30,578 bases of DNA from a virus, in the IMG/VR virus record IMGVR_UViG_3300045988_171550, positions 1-30,578 of that record. One strand, written 5' to 3'. Below, one piece after another: positions 56 through 9,201 of this stretch. The notes under the pieces were generated by a model, which had not been told where the DNA came from, did not search any database, and saw nothing but the letters and a program-made list of their open reading frames with translations. Numbering within the stretch: position 1 is the first letter of the stretch; the number at the start of each line of letters is the position of its first letter. Made by a program: the position numbers and the translations under genes.

Positions 56-541
56 GAACTATTCCCAAATAAATATGAAAATATACCAGATAAAATACTA
101 ACTTCAAAATCAGAATACGGAACTAAACTTCATAAATGCATTGAAATAATAGAAAAAAAGAAACCTAAAAGACCTATAAGTTATTGTAAAAGATATATAG
201 GAATTGATATATATCAAGAGCAAAGTTTAAAGGATTATTTAGAAATAAAAAAACAGTACAATATAGAAGTTTTAGAAAGTGAAAAGATAGTTAGTTATAA
301 TTATGATTATGCTGGAACACTTGATATGATAGCATTAGTAAATGGCAAGAAATCCATAATAGATATAAAAACAACATATGAATTTGATGAAATATATGTA
401 AGTTATCAAAATAGTTTATATGAACTTGCAAATGGTAAAGTAGATAAGTTATATTGTTTATGGCTACCTAAAAGAAAAATAGGTAAGTTAATAGAAGTTA
501 AAAGAATAAATAAGGGCATATTATTAGAAATAATAAAATAA
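2..541 (+). CDS. PD-(D/E)XK-superfamily nuclease (phage recombination exonuclease or Cas4-like), 3' part. The N-terminus is encoded at 30501..30578 across the circular junction.
   Basis: Frame 2 is open from position 2 and continues the ORF that starts at 30501, giving 187 aa in total. Motifs GTLDMIALV and IIDIKTT match the D...D/E-x-K arrangement of PD-(D/E)XK nucleases. The gene sits between an ERF-like annealing protein and SSB. Confidence 0.6.
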   Translation, partial: HIYIKNGIVLKSVTQILKELFPNKYENIPDKILTSKSEYGTKLHKCIEIIEKKKPKRPISYCKRYIGIDIYQEQSLKDYLEIKKQYNIEVLESEKIVSYNYDYAGTLDMIALVNGKKSIIDIKTTYEFDEIYVSYQNSLYELANGKVDKLYCLWLPKRKIGKLIEVKRINKGILLEIIK

Positions 542-558
542 AAAAGGAAGGAAAAAAA

Positions 559-984
559 ATGAATAGATGTGAATTTATTGGTAGACCAGTTAAAGCACTT
601 GAATTAAAAAAGACTTCAAATGGCAATAATATATTAACATTTACATTAGCAGTTAGAAGAGAATATAAAAATGTTAATGGAGAATATGATAGTGATTTTA
701 TTAGATTAAAAGCATTTAAGAATAGTGCTAACTTCATAAGCACTTATGTAAAAGTAGGAGATTTAATTTATATTGAAGCAACATATGTAAGTAGCACATA
801 TGATAAAGATGGACAAAAATTATATAGTCAAGATTTAATTGTTACTAAAGTAAAATGTTTAAGTGCTTCAAAATCAAAAAAAGAAGATAAAAAAGAAGAA
901 ACACCAACAACTCAAAATGAAGTAGACCCATATAAACAATTTGCAGATGAAACTGAAATAAATGAAAATGACTTTCCATTTTAA
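559..984 (+). CDS. ssb: Single-stranded DNA-binding protein with an acidic C-terminal tail (…NDFPF)
   Basis: OB-fold-like N-terminal region, a low-complexity linker, and a C-terminal D-F-P-F motif typical of SSB. A strong RBS (AAGGAAGGAAAAAAAATG) precedes the start. Confidence 0.8.
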   Translation: MNRCEFIGRPVKALELKKTSNGNNILTFTLAVRREYKNVNGEYDSDFIRLKAFKNSANFISTYVKVGDLIYIEATYVSSTYDKDGQKLYSQDLIVTKVKCLSASKSKKEDKKEETPTTQNEVDPYKQFADETEINENDFPF

Positions 985-992
985 GAGGTAAT

Positions 993-1328
993 ATGGATTT
1001 ATTAAATGAATTACAAAGTTTAAATAAACAACTTGAAATGTCAGTTAAAAGTTTAAGAATAAACGGAATAAAATATGCAGAGGCTGAAAGAGATTATAAA
1101 ATAGCAGTTAATAAAAAAGTATTAGAATTAAAAGATAATAAAATGGCAGTAGGTTTAATTAATCTTACAATATATGGTTATCAAGAAATAGCAACATTAA
1201 GATTTATGAGAGATAGTGCAGAGGTTATATATAATGCAAATCAAGAGGCAATTAATTCAATAAAACTTCGTATGAGATTAATAGAAAGTCAAATAAGTAG
1301 AGAATTTGGTTTAGGAGAAAATAAATGA
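993..1328 (+). CDS. hypothetical protein (111 aa)
   Basis: Long ORF with an RBS (GAGGTAATATG). Its stop overlaps the next start (ATGA), suggesting translational coupling. Confidence 0.5.
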   Translation: MDLLNELQSLNKQLEMSVKSLRINGIKYAEAERDYKIAVNKKVLELKDNKMAVGLINLTIYGYQEIATLRFMRDSAEVIYNANQEAINSIKLRMRLIESQISREFGLGENK

Positions 1329-1855
1329 GTATTAGAAGTAAATTTTGTGATTTTGACAAAGCAACTAGAAAATATATAAAAAAAAGAGATGGAGAAAAAT
1401 GTATTATATGTCATAGTAAAGGGGCATTACAAATAATGCATATATTCTTATCTAGAGCAAAAGGTGGAAAAGGTTGCAAAGAAAATGGATGTTTAGGTTG
1501 TGTAAAATGTCATAAAATAATAGATAATCCAATAGGACAAATTCAAAATGAAACCTCAAAAAGATATTTAAAATATTGTAAAGAATATTTAATACAAAAA
1601 GAAAATATATTAGAAAATTATGGTAGTGAAACAAATTTAATCAACAACCTATTAAAATTCAAGAATAAACCTATTGAATTAAAGAGTTTTGATTTAAACA
1701 GTATAAATATACTAGAAAAGAAAAAACAATGCCGAAAATGTATTTATTGTATTAAAAAAAGCAATAAATATAATTCATTACCAACATATTATTGCAGATT
1801 AAAACATAAAAGAGTTAATAAAAATAATATATGTGAAAATTATAAGGAGATATAA
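1325..1855 (+). CDS. HNH-family endonuclease-like protein with an additional C-terminal Cys cluster
   Basis: CIIC…MHIF…ENG…CVKCH fits the CxxC…H…N…CxxCH spacing of HNH zinc-finger nucleases. The C-terminus has a second cluster, CRKCIYC…C…C. Confidence 0.55.
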   Translation: MSIRSKFCDFDKATRKYIKKRDGEKCIICHSKGALQIMHIFLSRAKGGKGCKENGCLGCVKCHKIIDNPIGQIQNETSKRYLKYCKEYLIQKENILENYGSETNLINNLLKFKNKPIELKSFDLNSINILEKKKQCRKCIYCIKKSNKYNSLPTYYCRLKHKRVNKNNICENYKEI

Positions 1856-2049
1856 TGAACTTAAAAAGAAAAGTTGAAAGAAATAAAGAAAAAATAAAAC
1901 AAAAAGAAATAAGAGAAACATATGGAAAAAAACCAAAATCAATATGTCCAAGATGTCATAAACATAGTTTATTTATGACTAATCAAAATGGGGAAGTATA
2001 TTGTATCAGATGTGATAGACTTGTAGCATTAGACAAGAATAAAAAATAA
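1855..2049 (+). CDS. small zinc-ribbon protein (64 aa)
   Basis: CPRCH…(17)…CIRCD gives two CxxC pairs. The start overlaps the upstream stop (TAATG). Confidence 0.45.
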   Translation: MNLKRKVERNKEKIKQKEIRETYGKKPKSICPRCHKHSLFMTNQNGEVYCIRCDRLVALDKNKK

Positions 2050-2258
2050 TGATATAATAAAATTGCATAATATATATGCACACGGCACACCCCCTTTCAT
2101 TAAAAATCACTGATAGTGCTAGTATTATTTAGACATTCACATTGATTTTGTTTCGTTACAAAATCTCCTTTCTTGATTAAATGTGAAATCGACTATATTC
2201 TTATATTAAAACATCCTAAAACTTGTTTTAGTTCTATGTGAGTTTGCAAGTGATTAGT

Positions 2259-2287
2259 TTGACATAGAATTTATAAAATGATAAAAT
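2259..2287 (+). promoter_or_regulatory. sigma-70-like promoter candidate (TTGACA-N17-TAAAAT)
   Basis: The -35 TTGACA at 2259-2264 and the -10 TAAAAT at 2282-2287 are separated by a 17-nt spacer. The site lies in a 265-bp non-coding stretch upstream of a gene block. Confidence 0.4.
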
Positions 2288-2313
2288 AAAGAATATAAGG
2301 AGATAGGTACTTT

Positions 2314-2475
2314 ATGAAAGAATTAATAATAAAAATAATAGCAATCATAATATTAATAATAAATGTGTTATTTGTTTATGGTTGTTTTTTATTGCAAAAA
2401 ATAAAGTATCAACTCAAAATGAAAGAGAGGTGGAAAAATGAAAAAGTACGAATTCAAGAAGATAACATTAGATGA
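2314..2475 (+). CDS. small hydrophobic (single-TM) protein, 53 aa, below the 60-aa ORF cutoff
   Basis: ATG at 2314 follows AAGGAGATAGG by 7 nt. The product MKELIIKIIAIIILIINVLFVYGCFLLQK… contains a predicted TM helix. The ORF overlaps the next ORF by 38 nt in another frame. Confidence 0.3.
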   Translation: MKELIIKIIAIIILIINVLFVYGCFLLQKIKYQLKMKERWKNEKVRIQEDNIR

Positions 2476-2908
2476 ATATAAACTTGTAATTGAAAATAAA
2501 GAATACCCTTTTAAAAGAACAATTGAAATGGGAGAAAAAGTACAAGGAATAACAGCAAGTGCTAGAATTAAGATGTTAAAAGAACTTACCAAAATGGGTT
2601 TAACTAAAAATGACCTTATAATTAAAAAAGATTTGGGTAATGGTAAAATAACTTATGATGAAACTAATTATCAAGAATTTGAAAAGAAATTTATTGAAGA
2701 AGAAACATTACAAGTTGCAAATGATTTAATCGAAAGTTGTTTTAAAATGACAACAACTAAACTTTTTGAAGAACTAGGAATAAATGTTAATAGTGAAATC
2801 AACGAAGATGAAGCAAATGGAATTATGATGTTTACTCAAAAATTTATTACTATAATATCAAAAGGGGAAGAAGATACACCCAGTGATGGAAGTCCAGAAC
2901 AGTTATAA
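2438..2908 (+). CDS. hypothetical protein (156 aa)
   Basis: ORF with an RBS (AGAGAGGTGGAAAAATG). Confidence 0.5.
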   Translation: MKKYEFKKITLDEYKLVIENKEYPFKRTIEMGEKVQGITASARIKMLKELTKMGLTKNDLIIKKDLGNGKITYDETNYQEFEKKFIEEETLQVANDLIESCFKMTTTKLFEELGINVNSEINEDEANGIMMFTQKFITIISKGEEDTPSDGSPEQL

Positions 2909-3382: not shown

Positions 3383-3798
3383 TGGAAAAAGATTTAATAT
3401 TATTTAATGATAAAATAAGCAAATTAACAAAAGAAATAGTAAAATATGAGGATGAAAAAGGAAACTTATTATTAATACCAACTGGAAATTTAATGTGTAA
3501 GGTAGAATATTTAGAACTTGATGAAATAGGTATGAAAAAGGCTCTATATGAAAATATAGTTGATAAAAACGAGACTTATAACAAAATTAAAGTAAATAGA
3601 GTTATTGATAAGAGTTCAAAGACTGGAAATAAAAAAGATGCTGGAATACTAATTGACAGTGAAGTAGAAGTTAGCCAAGTATGGGTAGTAACTAATGGTT
3701 TAGGATTAAATAAATCATTTAAAGATAAGGAAAAAGCCCTTAATCTTGCAATGACATTAAATAATAAATATTTAGAAATGGCAGAACTATGCAAATAA
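3382..3798 (+). CDS. hypothetical protein (138 aa)
   Basis: ORF with an RBS (AAGGAAGAAAAAATAATG). Confidence 0.5.
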   Translation: MEKDLILFNDKISKLTKEIVKYEDEKGNLLLIPTGNLMCKVEYLELDEIGMKKALYENIVDKNETYNKIKVNRVIDKSSKTGNKKDAGILIDSEVEVSQVWVVTNGLGLNKSFKDKEKALNLAMTLNNKYLEMAELCK

Positions 3799-4280
3799 TT
3801 TATAAAAGCATAGAAGAAATTAAACCTTATGAAAACAACCCTAGAATAAATGATGAAGCAGTTGAATATGTAGCAAATAGTATAAAGGAATTTGGTTTTA
3901 GAAGTCCGATTATATTAGATAAAAATAATGTAATTATATGTGGTCATACAAGATTACTTGCAAGTAAAGAATTAAAACTTAAAGAAGTACCTTGTATAAT
4001 TGCTGATGACTTAAATGATGAACAAGTAAAAGCATTAAGACTTGCAGATAATAAAGTTGCTGAAAAATCAATGTGGGATTATTCTAAATTAGATGAAGAA
4101 TTAGAAGATATTTTAAATATAGATATGAGTAAATTTGATTTCATTAATAATGACATAGACTGGGAAAATGTAGAAGAATTAGAAGATAGTAACTATGAAG
4201 AACCAGAACATAATATGTTAGAATGTCCAAAATGTCATCATATAGATAGAGATATACATTTTAAGAAAGTTGGAGTATAA
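3789..4280 (+). CDS. ParB/Srx-fold (ParB N-terminal domain) nuclease-like protein with a C-terminal CxxC…HH zinc motif. Possibly a minimal DpdB-like partner of the adjacent DpdA.
   Basis: YENNPRIND (the PxNPR box), FGFRSPIIL and IICGHTRLLA (GxxR box) are the ParB N-terminal-domain signature. A C-terminal CPKCHH is present. The gene lies 24 nt upstream of the DpdA-like gene. Confidence 0.7.
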   Translation: MQIIYKSIEEIKPYENNPRINDEAVEYVANSIKEFGFRSPIILDKNNVIICGHTRLLASKELKLKEVPCIIADDLNDEQVKALRLADNKVAEKSMWDYSKLDEELEDILNIDMSKFDFINNDIDWENVEELEDSNYEEPEHNMLECPKCHHIDRDIHFKKVGV

Positions 4281-5134: not shown

Positions 5135-5794
5135 ATGAATATATTATTAGGAATTACAGGAATAATATTATGTTTTAGTATAGAAATTTTGATAGAAAAG
5201 ATATTTAAAAAAGAAGGATTATATGTATGGGTAAGTGTTGCATTAATAACGGCGAATATATTAGTTGCTAAAAATATTAATGTATTAAATTTACAGGCTA
5301 CACTTGGAAATATATTATTTGCAAGTACATTTCTTGCAACTGACATATTAAGTGAGAAATATAGTTCTAAAGATAGCAAGAAAGCAGTTAATATGGGTAT
5401 TATAGCAGTTATATTATTTACAATTGCTACACAATTTAGTTTATTGTTTAAACCAAATGAATTAGATATGGTAAATAACAGTTTAAAGACAATATTTACT
5501 TTCAATTTAAGAATAAGCATATCAAGTATCATAATGTGCTATTTAAGTAATATGCTAGACATAATGTTGTTTGAAAAAATAAAGAAAAAAATACCAAATA
5601 AAATGTGGGTAAGAAATAATATAGCAACAATAATAAGCAATTGTTTAGAAAATTATTTATTCACATTATTTGCATTTATTGGTATTTATGATATAGGAAC
5701 GATATTATCAATTGCTACAACAACAACTATATTAGAAATTATGATAGCAATATGTGATACACCGTTTTTATATTTAAGCAAGAAATTAAAATAA
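5135..5794 (+). CDS. yhhQ: YhhQ/QueT-family queuosine-precursor (preQ0/preQ1) transporter, a polytopic membrane protein
   Basis: 219 aa with about 6 predicted TM segments. The FLATD motif (GNILFASTFLATDIL) aligns with E. coli YhhQ (FIFLATDLTV). The gene is adjacent to the DpdA-like gene. Confidence 0.65.
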   Translation: MNILLGITGIILCFSIEILIEKIFKKEGLYVWVSVALITANILVAKNINVLNLQATLGNILFASTFLATDILSEKYSSKDSKKAVNMGIIAVILFTIATQFSLLFKPNELDMVNNSLKTIFTFNLRISISSIIMCYLSNMLDIMLFEKIKKKIPNKMWVRNNIATIISNCLENYLFTLFAFIGIYDIGTILSIATTTTILEIMIAICDTPFLYLSKKLK

Positions 5795-6445: not shown

Positions 6446-6679
6446 ATGGAATTTATTAAATTAAATAAAAATAGATATTTAATCAAAGATAGTAATAACC
6501 TAGTAGTTAGTGAAGAAGAAATGTTAAAACTTCAAAAGAAAGAACTAATTATAAAAGATATTCAAAGTAATGAGTGCCAAGGTAAAACTACTCAAAAAAT
6601 AATGGAAATAAATGAGAAATTAAATGAACAAAGTTCTAAACCTACAACTGTCAAAAAAACAAAAAAACCTATTAAATGA
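6446..6679 (+). CDS. hypothetical protein (77 aa). Its 3' end overlaps the terL start by 56 nt.
   Basis: ORF with a strong RBS (TAAGGAGGCATTATG). Confidence 0.45.
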   Translation: MEFIKLNKNRYLIKDSNNLVVSEEEMLKLQKKELIIKDIQSNECQGKTTQKIMEINEKLNEQSSKPTTVKKTKKPIK

Positions 6680-8523
6680 TATTATATCTCCAAATAAAAA
6701 AGAGATATATGTATTAGGTAGCACTCAAAGTGGAAAGACCTTTGATATATGTTTAGCGTGTATCTTATATGCACAAGCAGTATATGCTTATAGTCCTAAA
6801 GAAAAATACTTTGGCTCAATAACTGGTTGGAGTCTTGAAACCTTAAAAGGAAATATACTTGAACCTATAAAGAAATTTTTAGATGATATGGGTTTAAGAA
6901 AAAGTAAAGACTACATATTAAAATGGCAAACAGATGAGAAGTATTTAGAAATATATAACATAAGATATTATTTCTTTGGATTTAATAATGTACTAGCATT
7001 TAATAAGATACTAGGTAAACCATTATTATTTGAGTGGATAGATGAAAGTGCAAGAATATATTCACAATTAAATTTAAGAGAACCATTTAATGAATTTCCA
7101 GGTAGACAGGTGAGTTACGCTAATCACCCTTATTTAAAAACAATTCATTCATTCAATGTTGAGGGTGGAGAAAATCATCCTTACAAAATTGATTATATAG
7201 ACAAAAAACCAAAAGCAATACATTATACATTCTTCCCTTATGATAATCCAAAGATCAATACAAAGGAAGCAATGCAAAATGTAGTAGAAATGTTCCCACC
7301 TGGAAATTTAAGAGAACAAAAGATATTTAACAAATGGGTATTATCAACTGGTCGTGTATTTACTAAAATAAATAAAATAAATAGTCTAGATAATTATGCA
7401 TTTAGAGAAATAGGAGTAGGTATAGACTATGGTTCAGTTCACTCAACTGCATTTGTACCAATAGCACTTGCTTATGATAAAATAAATAAAAAATGGGTAT
7501 TAATAAGACTTGAAGTCTACTATCATAATCCAAAAGAAGAACAAGATAATCCTACAACGGAATATTTTAGTAAGCAATTAAGATTATTTTTATTATATTT
7601 AAAAAATGAATATGGACAAGTACCAATAACTACAATAGTGCTTGATAGTGCAGCCTCACATTTTCATAATAGGTTAATAGCAGATAATATACCTCATACA
7701 TTAATTAATAAAAGTCTTGATACAGTAGTAGAAGGTGTACAATATATGCAGTCATTATTCTATAAAGATTATTTACTTATTTATGAACAAAAATCAATTA
7801 AACATATAACTGATAATGGAGAAGTGATATATTGTGGTAAAGATGAGGGAATACTTGAACTTGAAACATATAGATATGATACAAATGCAAGTGCAAAGTC
7901 TGGAAAAGAATGCTATGTTAAAGAATTTGATGACCATATAGATTCTTGCTTAACAGGAGATACTATTATTGCAACAGATAGAGGTAATTTCAAAATAATT
8001 GATTTAGTTGGAAAAAGTGGAAATGTTAAATGCTTTGATGGTAATAGATTTATATATAAAAATTTTAAAGATGTAAGGCTTACAAAAAGAAAACAAGACA
8101 TATATAAGTTAAAATTATCAAATGGTTATGAATTAAAAGGAACATACGAACATCCTGTATTAACTATAAAAGGCTATAAGAAATTAGGAGAATTAACTGA
8201 AAAAGATAAAGTAATTTGCAATGGGAGAAATAAATTTTGTTCTAATAAATGTAAAAGTGCTTATAGAAGAAAATTAGGAGTGGATAATATTGAAAAAAAA
8301 TGTATCAGGTGTGGAAAAAAATTTGAAGTCAACAAATATTCAAAAAGAGAGCAATGTTACAATTGCTACCCCTGTAGAAATAAAAAAACTTCCAAATAAA
8401 GAAGATGTTTACAATATGGAGGTAGAAGAAGTTCACAATTTTGTTGCTAATGGAATTGTAGTTCATAATTGTAGATATATTATTATGGAATTTAAAGAAA
8501 CTGATAGAGCACCAGTAGTATAG
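6624..8523 (+). CDS. terL: terminase large subunit interrupted by a mini-intein. The reading frame as given has a +1 discontinuity at the A7 run at 8382-8388, so the ORF track splits it into 6624..8399 and 8290..8523.
   Basis: Walker A GSTQSGKT and Walker B LLFEWIDES are present, followed by a nuclease domain. The intein N-terminal splice block is CLTGDTII, block B is GYELKGTYEHPVLT, and the C-terminal block is VYNMEVEEVHNFVANGIVVHN|C. Joining the exteins gives …EFDDHIDS|CRYIIMEF…, which restores the terminase DDxxD-x-RY motif. Confidence 0.75.
7947..8469 (+). other. Hint-domain mini-intein inside terL. It carries an internal zinc-ribbon (Cys-rich) insert and has no homing-endonuclease domain. 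It is 523 nt long, so it contains a 1-nt frame break.
   Basis: It starts at Cys (TGC at 7947) in DS|CLTGDT and ends at HN (8464-8469) before the +1 Cys (8470). A Cys-rich segment CNGRNKFCSNKC…CIRCG…CYNCYPC is read in frame 3 up to the A7 run, and the block F/G sequence is read in frame 1 after it. Confidence 0.7.
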
Positions 8524-8534
8524 GAGGAATAAAA

Positions 8535-8750
8535 TTGGAATTAAGGTGTAAGGCAAGTAAGAGATTTCTATTTGATATAAATATAGAAGAATATTATAAT
8601 AATTTAAAAAAAATGGGTATAGAAATAAAAACTCCTATACTTATTAAAATACCTTGTGGTAAATGTAAATTAATAGAGGAATATGAAATATATCCTACAC
8701 ATTACATTCATATTAGAAGTTATAAAAGGGAATTTGACAAAAGAGATTAA
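8535..8750 (+). CDS. hypothetical small Cys-containing protein (71 aa, TTG start)
   Basis: RBS TAGGAGGAATAAAATTG, and a CxxC motif (PCGKCK). Confidence 0.4.
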   Translation: MELRCKASKRFLFDINIEEYYNNLKKMGIEIKTPILIKIPCGKCKLIEEYEIYPTHYIHIRSYKREFDKRD

Positions 8751-8809
8751 AAGTGATATTATAATTATGATATAAAAGTGCAAAAAATGTGTCGAAAAAG
8801 CATAAGAAG

Positions 8810-8840: not shown

Positions 8841-8859
8841 ATTGTAAAGGAGGCATAAA

Positions 8860-9201
8860 ATGAAAGAAATTATTAATAAATTTGTGAAAAAAATACAAAA
8901 AATAAAAGAAATTATTAATAAATTTGTGAAAAAAATACAAAAAATAAAAAAATATTATAAAACTAGATGGAAATTATATTTATATTATAAAAATCAATGT
9001 ATAGGTAAAAGATATATAGATGCAGATTTTGCACCTATGGGTAAAGAATATATGGTTAAAATTAAACATATGAAACATTTAGTAGGTGGTAATAATGTTC
9101 AAATGATAGTTACTGCCTATAAATATAAATATAGTAGTGAAAAGACTAGAGAAGTGCATATAGAGGTAATACCTTATGAGGGGGTGACAATAAATGAATA
9201 A
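8860..9201 (+). CDS. hypothetical protein (113 aa) with a duplicated N-terminal 14-aa segment
   Basis: RBS AAGGAGGCATAAAATG. A perfect 42-bp tandem duplication encodes KEIINKFVKKIQKI twice. Confidence 0.45.
   Translation: MKEIINKFVKKIQKIKEIINKFVKKIQKIKKYYKTRWKLYLYYKNQCIGKRYIDADFAPMGKEYMVKIKHMKHLVGGNNVQMIVTAYKYKYSSEKTREVHIEVIPYEGVTINE
8863..8946 (+). repeat. perfect 42-bp tandem duplication (2 copies), in frame within a CDS
   Basis: Bases 8863-8904 equal bases 8905-8946 (aaagaaattattaataaatttgtgaaaaaaatacaaaaaata). Confidence 0.9.

Follow-up and report, generated by a model that had tools for sequence, protein, structure and literature searches.

The gene for the large terminase subunit (terL) of a gut phage of about 30.5 kb, present in IMG/VR virus record IMGVR_UViG_3300045988_171550 (positions 1 to 30,578; this whole stretch of 30,578 nucleotides (nt) is called the window), carries an intein whose two ends are read in different frames. 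The frame-3 open reading frame (ORF) 6624..8399 of 591 amino acids (aa) begins as TerL, runs from ...DDHIDS/CLTGDTII... (slashes mark splice or insertion points) over ...GTYEHPVLT... to ...KDKVICN and continues as GRNKFCSNKC...CYNCYPCRNKKTSK-stop, a cysteine-rich stretch ending with CYPCRNKKTSK-stop. The frame-1 ORF 8290..8523 of 77 aa has a TTG start and reads ...PVEIKKLPNKEDVYNMEVEEVHNFVANGIVVHN/CRYIIMEFKETDRAPVV-stop. The intein spans 523 nt (7947..8469) and includes a run of seven adenines (A7) at 8382-8388. The original prediction had described these letters accurately, with the Cys-rich part in frame 3 and the C-terminal blocks in frame 1, and had taken them for a contiguous mini-intein broken by a shift of 1 nt at the A7 run.

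With respect to the host gene, the translation displays the TerL features GSTQSGKT and DDHID...RY, and the spliced extein is matched by phrog_2 (terminase large subunit) with E=1e-19 and by three further terL PHROGs. No terminase family in Pfam matched the extein at E<=0.1, so that the identity came from PHROGs, and annotated terL genes in phages were recovered by tblastn, which was required as megablast yielded no near-identical annotated phage. Both intein halves are matched by the Pfam family Intein_splicing, the N-intein half (IntN) at profile positions 4-96 and the C-intein half (IntC) at profile positions 111-155, which together with the PHROG match bears out the predicted intein within a large terminase. 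IntC alone reaches 36.2 bits versus a cut-off of 35.8 bits; the version minus one A, indeed a continuous ORF of 174 aa, reaches 61.4 bits versus the same cut-off. The catalytic residues Cys1, TxxH, the terminal HN and the +1 Cys are all present, with blocks F and G and the next residue reading DVYNMEVEEVHNFVANGIVVHN/C at 8401-8472. Joined, the two halves can be aligned over their whole length to the mini-inteins of Spl DnaX and DnaB; the alignment to NrdJ-1 and Npu DnaE is less close. Blocks A to G are not covered by one open frame, as frame 3 stops at 8397-8399 and blocks F and G are located in frame 1.

The splice junction can be read from homologues that possess no intein. Locus L012, a TerL of 85% identity from a metagenome-assembled genome of Bacilli, reads across the junction as ...DDHIDA-LRYIIIEFKETDRAPVV-stop, and L013 and L014, which are colinear with the window TerL, are likewise empty at the intein site. 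These intein-free alleles confirm the predicted splice junction, and the proposal that splicing would restore DDHIDS-CRYIIMEF stands, the extein comparison reading through the junction. Rfam at gathering threshold gave no match in the window, in the related locus L002 or in the Exiguobacterium locus L017; a group I/II intron reading is therefore unsupported. The coordinates of the features are collected in Table 1.

Table 1. Features of the terL locus in the window and of loci with the same layout in other TerL lineages
Locus	Feature	Position	Strand	Description
Window	terL N-extein	6624..7946	+	441 codons, Walker A GSTQSGKT, ends ...DDHIDS; PHROG, tblastn, colinear intein-free homologues
Window	N-intein half (IntN)	7947..8222	+	92 codons, block A CLTGDTII (Cys1), block B GTYEHPVLT, ends ...KDKVICN
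Window	Junction of 496-nt deletion	8214..8222		microhomology ATTTG(C/T)AAT; BLAST block overlap
Window	3' remnant of HNH_3 homing-endonuclease gene	8223..8399	+	58 codons and TAA, in-frame with IntN
Window	AGGAG, putative ribosome-binding site of IntC ORF	8276..8280	+	9 nt upstream of TTG 8290
Window	C-intein half (IntC)	8290..8469	+	frame 1, at most 60 codons from TTG 8290; blocks F/G DVYNMEVEEVHNFVANGIVVHN
Window	A7 run	8382..8388	+	within 110-nt overlap; K-K in both frames (HNH ...NKKT..., IntC ...IKKL...)
Window	terL C-extein	8470..8523	+	CRYIIMEFKETDRAPVV and stop; 17 aa; matches intein-free C-termini
Lactobacillus phage CL2 (NC_028835)	terL	506..1954		about 29% identical TerL, stops after IntN
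Lactobacillus phage CL2 (NC_028835)	HNH gene	1967..2590		
Lactobacillus phage CL2 (NC_028835)	IntC/C-extein ORF	2487..2774		+1 frame; ends ...FIVHN/CMDATRYF
L008	TerL of Terminase_6N/3 type			split-intein three-part layout as CL2
L010	TerL of a different lineage			split-intein three-part layout as CL2
L011	640-aa TerL-IntN ORF			three-part layout
L011	IntC ORF	3560..3904		found by gene caller

The origin of the Cys-rich stretch is revealed by relatives that came from a database search with the repaired intein (one A removed). P0001 and P0002 are TerL fragments ending ...KDKIICN-stop; P0003 and P0004 are proteins of 208 aa of the HNH_3 family (PF13392), the last 58 residues of which (151-208 in P0003) are 95% identical to the stretch in the window and finish with the same TSK-stop. 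That the Cys-rich frame is truly coding, as had been suggested, is supported by this identity and the common stop. It is not, as also suggested, a zinc ribbon that replaces the endonuclease domain of an intein, but leftover endonuclease, as the HNH_3 catalytic core corresponds to P0003 residues 36-80 and only residues 151-208 are retained in the window. The remnant matches the PHROG HNH endonuclease families phrog_15471 and phrog_1271. The tail, treble-clef or zinc-ribbon-like, presumably binds DNA; a sequence search for relatives of the HNH protein with solved structure gave none.

Comparison with L002 delimits what has been removed. Window positions 7800-8222 align with L002 3532-3954 and window positions 8213-8798 with L002 4441-5031, such that 496 nt of L002 (3955..4450) have no counterpart in the window. 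The BLAST blocks overlap at window 8213-8222 versus each of L002, L003, L004 and L005, and the deletion junction ATTTGCAAT (8214-8222) represents a microhomology of 8-9 nt, the L002 copies of which, ATTTGCAAT at the IntN end and ATTTGTAAT inside the HNH gene, both encode I-C-N. Lost in the window are the stop of IntN, the spacer and HNH codons 1-150 including the catalytic core. The halves of the intein thus no longer flank a free-standing homing endonuclease gene, of which only the 3' 58 codons are left, and the IntN ORF, which in the relatives is terminated by TGA right after ...ICN, runs on through these codons to the endonuclease stop. The true lesion in the window is, as judged from the alignment with its relatives, this 496-nt deletion at 8214-8222 and not the A-run, and the in-frame fusion of the last 58 HNH codons to IntN arose by chance. 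The window is a derived, endonuclease-deleted member of a fractured-gene clade and, because the nuclease core has been deleted, this copy should no longer be able to home.

The clade comprises 14 loci with at least eight distinct variants from separate metagenomes and assemblers (the window, L002-L005 and L023-L031). L002-L005 display the order of a 533-aa ORF for the TerL N-part and IntN closed by TGA, a 43-nt spacer with the ribosome-binding site TAGGAGATGATTATATG, the HNH gene and the IntC/C-extein ORF, which is in the third frame and overlaps the HNH 3' end. In relatives such as L002, L004 and L005, the HNH gene is intact (208 aa) with TAGGAGATGATTATATG as its own ribosome-binding site, and the sequence from the HNH tail through IntC is the same as in the window including the A7 run. 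The stop after IntN is present, without the 496-nt deletion, in every clade locus except the window and its identical twin L006, and all clade loci with this stop but the recombinant L024 have kept a full-length HNH ORF. As IntN, HNH and IntC occupy three different frames in the relatives with intact HNH, a shift at the A-run could not join the intein halves, and a continuous ORF from block A to block G occurs in none of the 14 clade loci. A scan of public collections with conserved flanks and a variable gap N{4,10} across the run recovered five metagenome loci and four IMG/VR loci, with AAAAAAA in nine out of nine. Overall, 14 of 14 clade loci carry A7 with identical frame offset. The contiguous mini-intein broken by a 1-nt shift has accordingly to be abandoned, offset and A7 being the same in the 13 other clade loci, and the apparent frameshift at A7 is, to judge from these loci, an inherited gene overlap.

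While the backbone of the window and L002 is 75-82% identical, identity rises to 90-100% in the region from 7947 to approximately 8520, the left border of which falls sharply on the first codon of the intein. Such an identity island is the usual signature of recent horizontal spread of an intein-endonuclease unit, and the difference to the backbone therefore indicates that the unit has recently been mobile. The ratio of non-synonymous to synonymous polymorphism (pN/pS) of IntN is 0.24-0.34 versus L002 and L005. A distinct rearrangement is seen in L024 (OGOB01007077.1, reverse strand), where approximately 160 nt replace the middle of the HNH tail and truncate the HNH ORF (...RRKIGVDHKFLI-stop). 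The replacement resembles by eye an XRE-type helix-turn-helix fragment (ISNLEKGKRNFSLNQLEKICEFFNVEMSYF), is open in the IntC frame and also eliminates the counterpart of TTG 8290. Judging from L024, the region around the junction is plastic with respect to recombination.

Whether the IntC ORF is a gene of its own can be assessed by its substitutions and its signals. Between the window and L002 or L005, positions 8401-8520, which lie outside the overlap with the HNH frame, contain 11-12 synonymous and 2 non-synonymous differences (pN/pS about 0.04), a pattern indicating that IntC and the C-extein are under strong purifying selection in their own frame. There are 45 copies of the motif AGGAG on the + strand as opposed to 8 on the - strand, and 25 of those on the + strand precede the start codon of an ORF of at least 50 aa. 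Among these 25, none but the copy at 8276-8280 lies within another gene in a different frame, and the adjoining gene (TTG 8535) carries the same AGGAG and TTG signals. The AGGAG site is kept in L002, L004, L005, L008 and L010. The ORF 8290..8523 overlaps the HNH frame by 110 nt, with GTG 8311 and TTG 8323 as alternative starts, of which GTG 8311, derived from endonuclease Cys-Gly codons, is the sole start present in all lineages and has a poor ribosome-binding site. Most likely IntC is independently translated from AGGAG-N9-TTG 8290, a start deduced from these signals. The small IntC/C-extein ORF has been missed by gene callers or annotators in CL2, L002 and L006, and the GenBank annotation at CL2 lists only 'terminase large subunit' and 'HNH endonuclease'.

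The same three-part layout recurs in other TerL lineages (Table 1). In all related loci IntC is at +1 relative to HNH, whereas spacer and frame between IntN and HNH vary. L010 has A6 in place of A7, and L008, L011 and CL2 have no A-run, so that the slippery motif is not kept wherever the +1 offset is kept: the offset is universal, and A7 is confined to the window clade. CL2 forms plaques (PMC6563197) and therefore the three-part arrangement should yield a working terminase, an indirect sign that splicing occurs; the ligated TerL of CL2 would span ...AHDH-CMDATRYFVMQVIK. P0005 contains a contiguous, endonuclease-free mini-intein at the same TerL motif. The insertion points vary within this one nuclease motif of TerL, being DHxxD(S/A)/intein/CRY in the window and L008, DH/intein/(C/S)xDATRY in CL2, L010 and P0005, and DHG/intein/CDCLRY in L011; the inteins of these six are not all strictly allelic.

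The HNH family itself is found in four contexts, namely free-standing beside an uninterrupted terL (PAE1, BP10 and Shemara), overprinted in the -1 frame within a contiguous intein (phiCDHM19, TJE1 and Highwayman), between split-intein halves (window clade, CL2, L008, L010 and L011) and between two terL pieces in Exiguobacterium phage EauM-23. In the overprinted context a single long terL ORF of 728-799 aa is annotated in the Clostridium phage phiCDHM19 (L015, 443..2842), the Tetrasphaera phage TJE1 (L016, 1053..3239) and the Acinetobacter phage Highwayman (L018, 960..3242), where the in-frame translation between the intein halves is featureless and the complete HNH_3 ORF lies in the -1 frame. 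In the Exiguobacterium phage (vB_EauM-23, MH844558; L017, 1059..3243) terL ends ...EDKNNHSMAA-stop and is followed, after a gap of approximately 210 nt, by an HNH gene of the same family with 45% identity; another frame reads ...NNQCDATRYAMEMDMRPTAQALKF-stop just upstream of the portal gene. This terL is broken at the same DHxxDAxRY motif, with no intein blocks seen and no Rfam intron match, and could be an intein-less fractured terL or contain an unrecognised intron.

Cumulatively, these results make it probable that the window terL is a fractured gene with a naturally split class-1 intein, whose HNH gene has mostly been deleted and whose TerL is trans-spliced. The ancestor would have possessed three ORFs, the first for the TerL N-extein and IntN ending in a stop, the second for a free-standing HNH_3 homing endonuclease with its own ribosome-binding site, and the third, starting inside the endonuclease 3' end in the +1 frame, for IntC and the 17-aa C-extein. 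The deletion of 496 nt between two ATTTG(C/T)AAT copies then joined the last 58 endonuclease codons to IntN, and the fused ORF ends at the native endonuclease stop 8397-8399. Its product, an N-precursor of 591 aa, would consist of 441 aa of N-extein, 92 aa of IntN and a tail of 58 aa, and the C-precursor of at most 77 aa would consist of IntC (at most 60 aa) and the C-extein. Association of IntN and IntC, followed by protein trans-splicing, would most likely provide a TerL of 458 aa with the junction peptide ...EFDDHIDSCRYIIMEFK.

Several points weigh against this interpretation. Expression and splicing are predictions for every member. CL2 and L011 have a stop that closes the counterpart of TTG 8290 and must use other starts, and AGGAG and TTG sit in conserved endonuclease codons (L-G-V...I-E), which confounds their conservation. 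Splicing or IntC expression could be lowered by the 58-aa tail on IntN or by ribosomes crossing the IntC start. Finally, the deletion allele is seen in the window and in L006, which is 100% identical to the window over 7,776 nt, has a coverage of approximately 4x per its record name and could stem from the same sample; L006 is thus not counted as independent, and propagation of this deletion allele is weakly supported. The exact 591-aa protein of the window is found on four contigs.

If the tail blocked IntN association, or read-through occluded the IntC start, the window would hold a dead allele in a defective or helper-dependent genome. This is unlikely, albeit the most credible of the alternatives. 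In its favour, the allele is known from the window and one identical low-coverage contig, and 12 of 12 other clade loci are without the 496-nt deletion. On the other hand, every catalytic residue of the intein is intact, intact ORFs on the + strand stand close together over the rest of the window, and fractured genes are expected to lose their endonuclease and have been observed to do so (PMC2677866). Moreover, the tail should be tolerated by the intein, by analogy with phiCDHM19, TJE1 and Highwayman, because these hold more than 200 residues between the intein halves at the same loop in a contiguous, presumably spliced TerL.

The remaining alternatives assign a role to the A7 run. Recoding by +1 ribosomal or transcriptional slippage at A7 could produce a contiguous, cis-spliced precursor as the principal or a substantial source of TerL; only in the window allele do IntN and the endonuclease tail share a frame, with frame 1 exactly at +1, and tRNA-Lys can re-pair perfectly one base downstream in AAT-AAA-AAA-ACT. 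Such recoding is nevertheless improbable, since the fusion stems from a recent deletion that has left no time for a programmed signal, the run does no more than encode K-K in either frame and is, as described above, not conserved outside the clade, independent expression of IntC must already exist in the ancestors, where IntN has its own ORF and frame, and a ribosome-binding site and start are at hand for IntC. For efficient slippage, a run of seven is short. As the native mechanism, programmed slippage was rejected, because the intact relatives have IntN in an ORF of its own in a third frame and the lineages do not share the A-run; the broken or slippage-decoded contiguous intein of the original prediction fails likewise, the IntN of the relatives stopping before the HNH gene and in another frame. 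Quite improbable is also that a split intein has been caught re-fusing, as in step IIIa of Dassa et al. (2009), with trans- and cis-splicing maybe in parallel. In that case low-level +1 slippage at A7 or an A7-to-A6 mutation would create a contiguous intein that splices in cis and holds the zinc-binding endonuclease tail as a new DNA-binding insert. Scarcely tenable is a homopolymer sequencing or assembly error with a true A6 and a continuous 174-aa mini-intein with zinc-ribbon insert. One A fewer does give a continuous ORF with its Intein_splicing score of 61.4 bits, and contig coverage is low (the approximately 4x of L006). The A6 sought in the relatives is, however, A7 throughout the clade in its different variants, metagenomes and assemblies, the stop of the frame-3 stretch is the native one of a known endonuclease protein, lineages without an A-run show the same +1 offset, and A6 in the intact relatives would truncate or alter the endonuclease and still leave IntN and IntC unjoined. 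With nine of nine new loci from the variable-gap scan showing A7, the error was excluded for practical purposes.

The fractured gene with split intein which is the preferred interpretation is not without precedent. Fractured genes have been described as split-intein halves around a free-standing endonuclease gene, with an overlap of the endonuclease 3' end and the IntC ORF of 6-69 bp and with endonucleases that are GIY-YIG or Vsr-like, HNH types being predicted as capable (Dassa et al., 2009, NAR; PMC2677866). In the respective model, the invading element brings an upstream stop and a downstream start, endonuclease loss is step III, observed at gp41-7, and re-fusion occurs via loss of the flanks as step IIIa (PMC2677866). 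Shared with these genes are the ORF for N-extein and IntN, the endonuclease gene with its own signals, the overlapping ORF for IntC and C-extein, the break at the canonical endonuclease-insertion loop and the phage origin. In contrast, the endonuclease is HNH_3 here, terL is split at a canonical point and not, as their single gp17-like terminase, at an unusual one, the overlap amounts to about 74-110 nt, and the endonuclease of the window is partly deleted with its tail in-frame with IntN. An HNH-type fractured gene has been reported for PolB of phage MIJ3 (PMC6892783), where a free-standing endonuclease gene of HNH type likewise separates the part with IntN from that with IntC in an essential phage gene. 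The MIJ3 case differs in host protein and intein, and its endonuclease is intact.

Out-of-frame endonucleases within inteins (Gosselin, Arsenault and Gogarten, 2025; 10.1101/2025.01.02.630785) are resembled by the overprinted phiCDHM19, TJE1 and Highwayman loci with HNH at -1 and IntC at +1, although the endonucleases of that preprint are endonuclease VII-like and not HNH_3. There the intein ORF is contiguous; the window clade instead has stops in the intein frame and its two halves in different frames. With respect to solved structures, Spl DnaX (7cfv), DnaB (4o1r), Mtu RecA, NrdJ-1 (8ubs) and Npu DnaE (4kl5) align over the full HINT domain with E=6e-11 to 1e-4, and blocks A, B, F and G are shared with the solved class-1 inteins. 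Unlike the solved mini- and split inteins, the halves in the window are in separate overlapping frames and IntN has a foreign tail of 58 aa. A fractured terL gene with this HNH family was not found described in the literature searched. The window is therefore distinctive as a partial-deletion intermediate with the endonuclease tail in-frame with IntN; the arrangement itself is already known.

When annotated without the IntC/C-extein ORF, such a locus looks like a frameshifted or truncated terminase; once recognised, the fractured-gene layout prevents false pseudogene and sequencing-error calls in phage genomes. One TerL motif spans a series from the empty site over the contiguous mini-intein, the intein with overprinted HNH and the split intein with HNH to the endonuclease-deleted split intein, which makes the cycle of endonuclease gain and loss and the origin of split inteins directly comparable. 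With respect to applicability, the pair of a 92-aa IntN and an IntC of at most 60 aa, together with its relatives from the cultured phage CL2, provides candidate orthogonal split inteins for protein engineering.

Beyond terL, the ORF 8535..8750, located between terL and the portal-side genes, encodes 71 aa from a TTG start with a C...CxxC motif and is kept in all relatives, including the intein-free L012, L013 and L014. A 42-nt tandem repeat (8857..8961, 2.6 copies, 93% matches) at the 5' end of the ORF 8860..9201 gives an in-frame duplication of the peptide EIINKFVKKIQKIK. Two further genes, 3789..4280 for a protein with a ParB_N domain and 5135..5794 for a Vut_1 (PF02592) protein, lie shortly before the packaging module, with both labels taken from precomputed Pfam matches on the gene calls of the identical contig L006.

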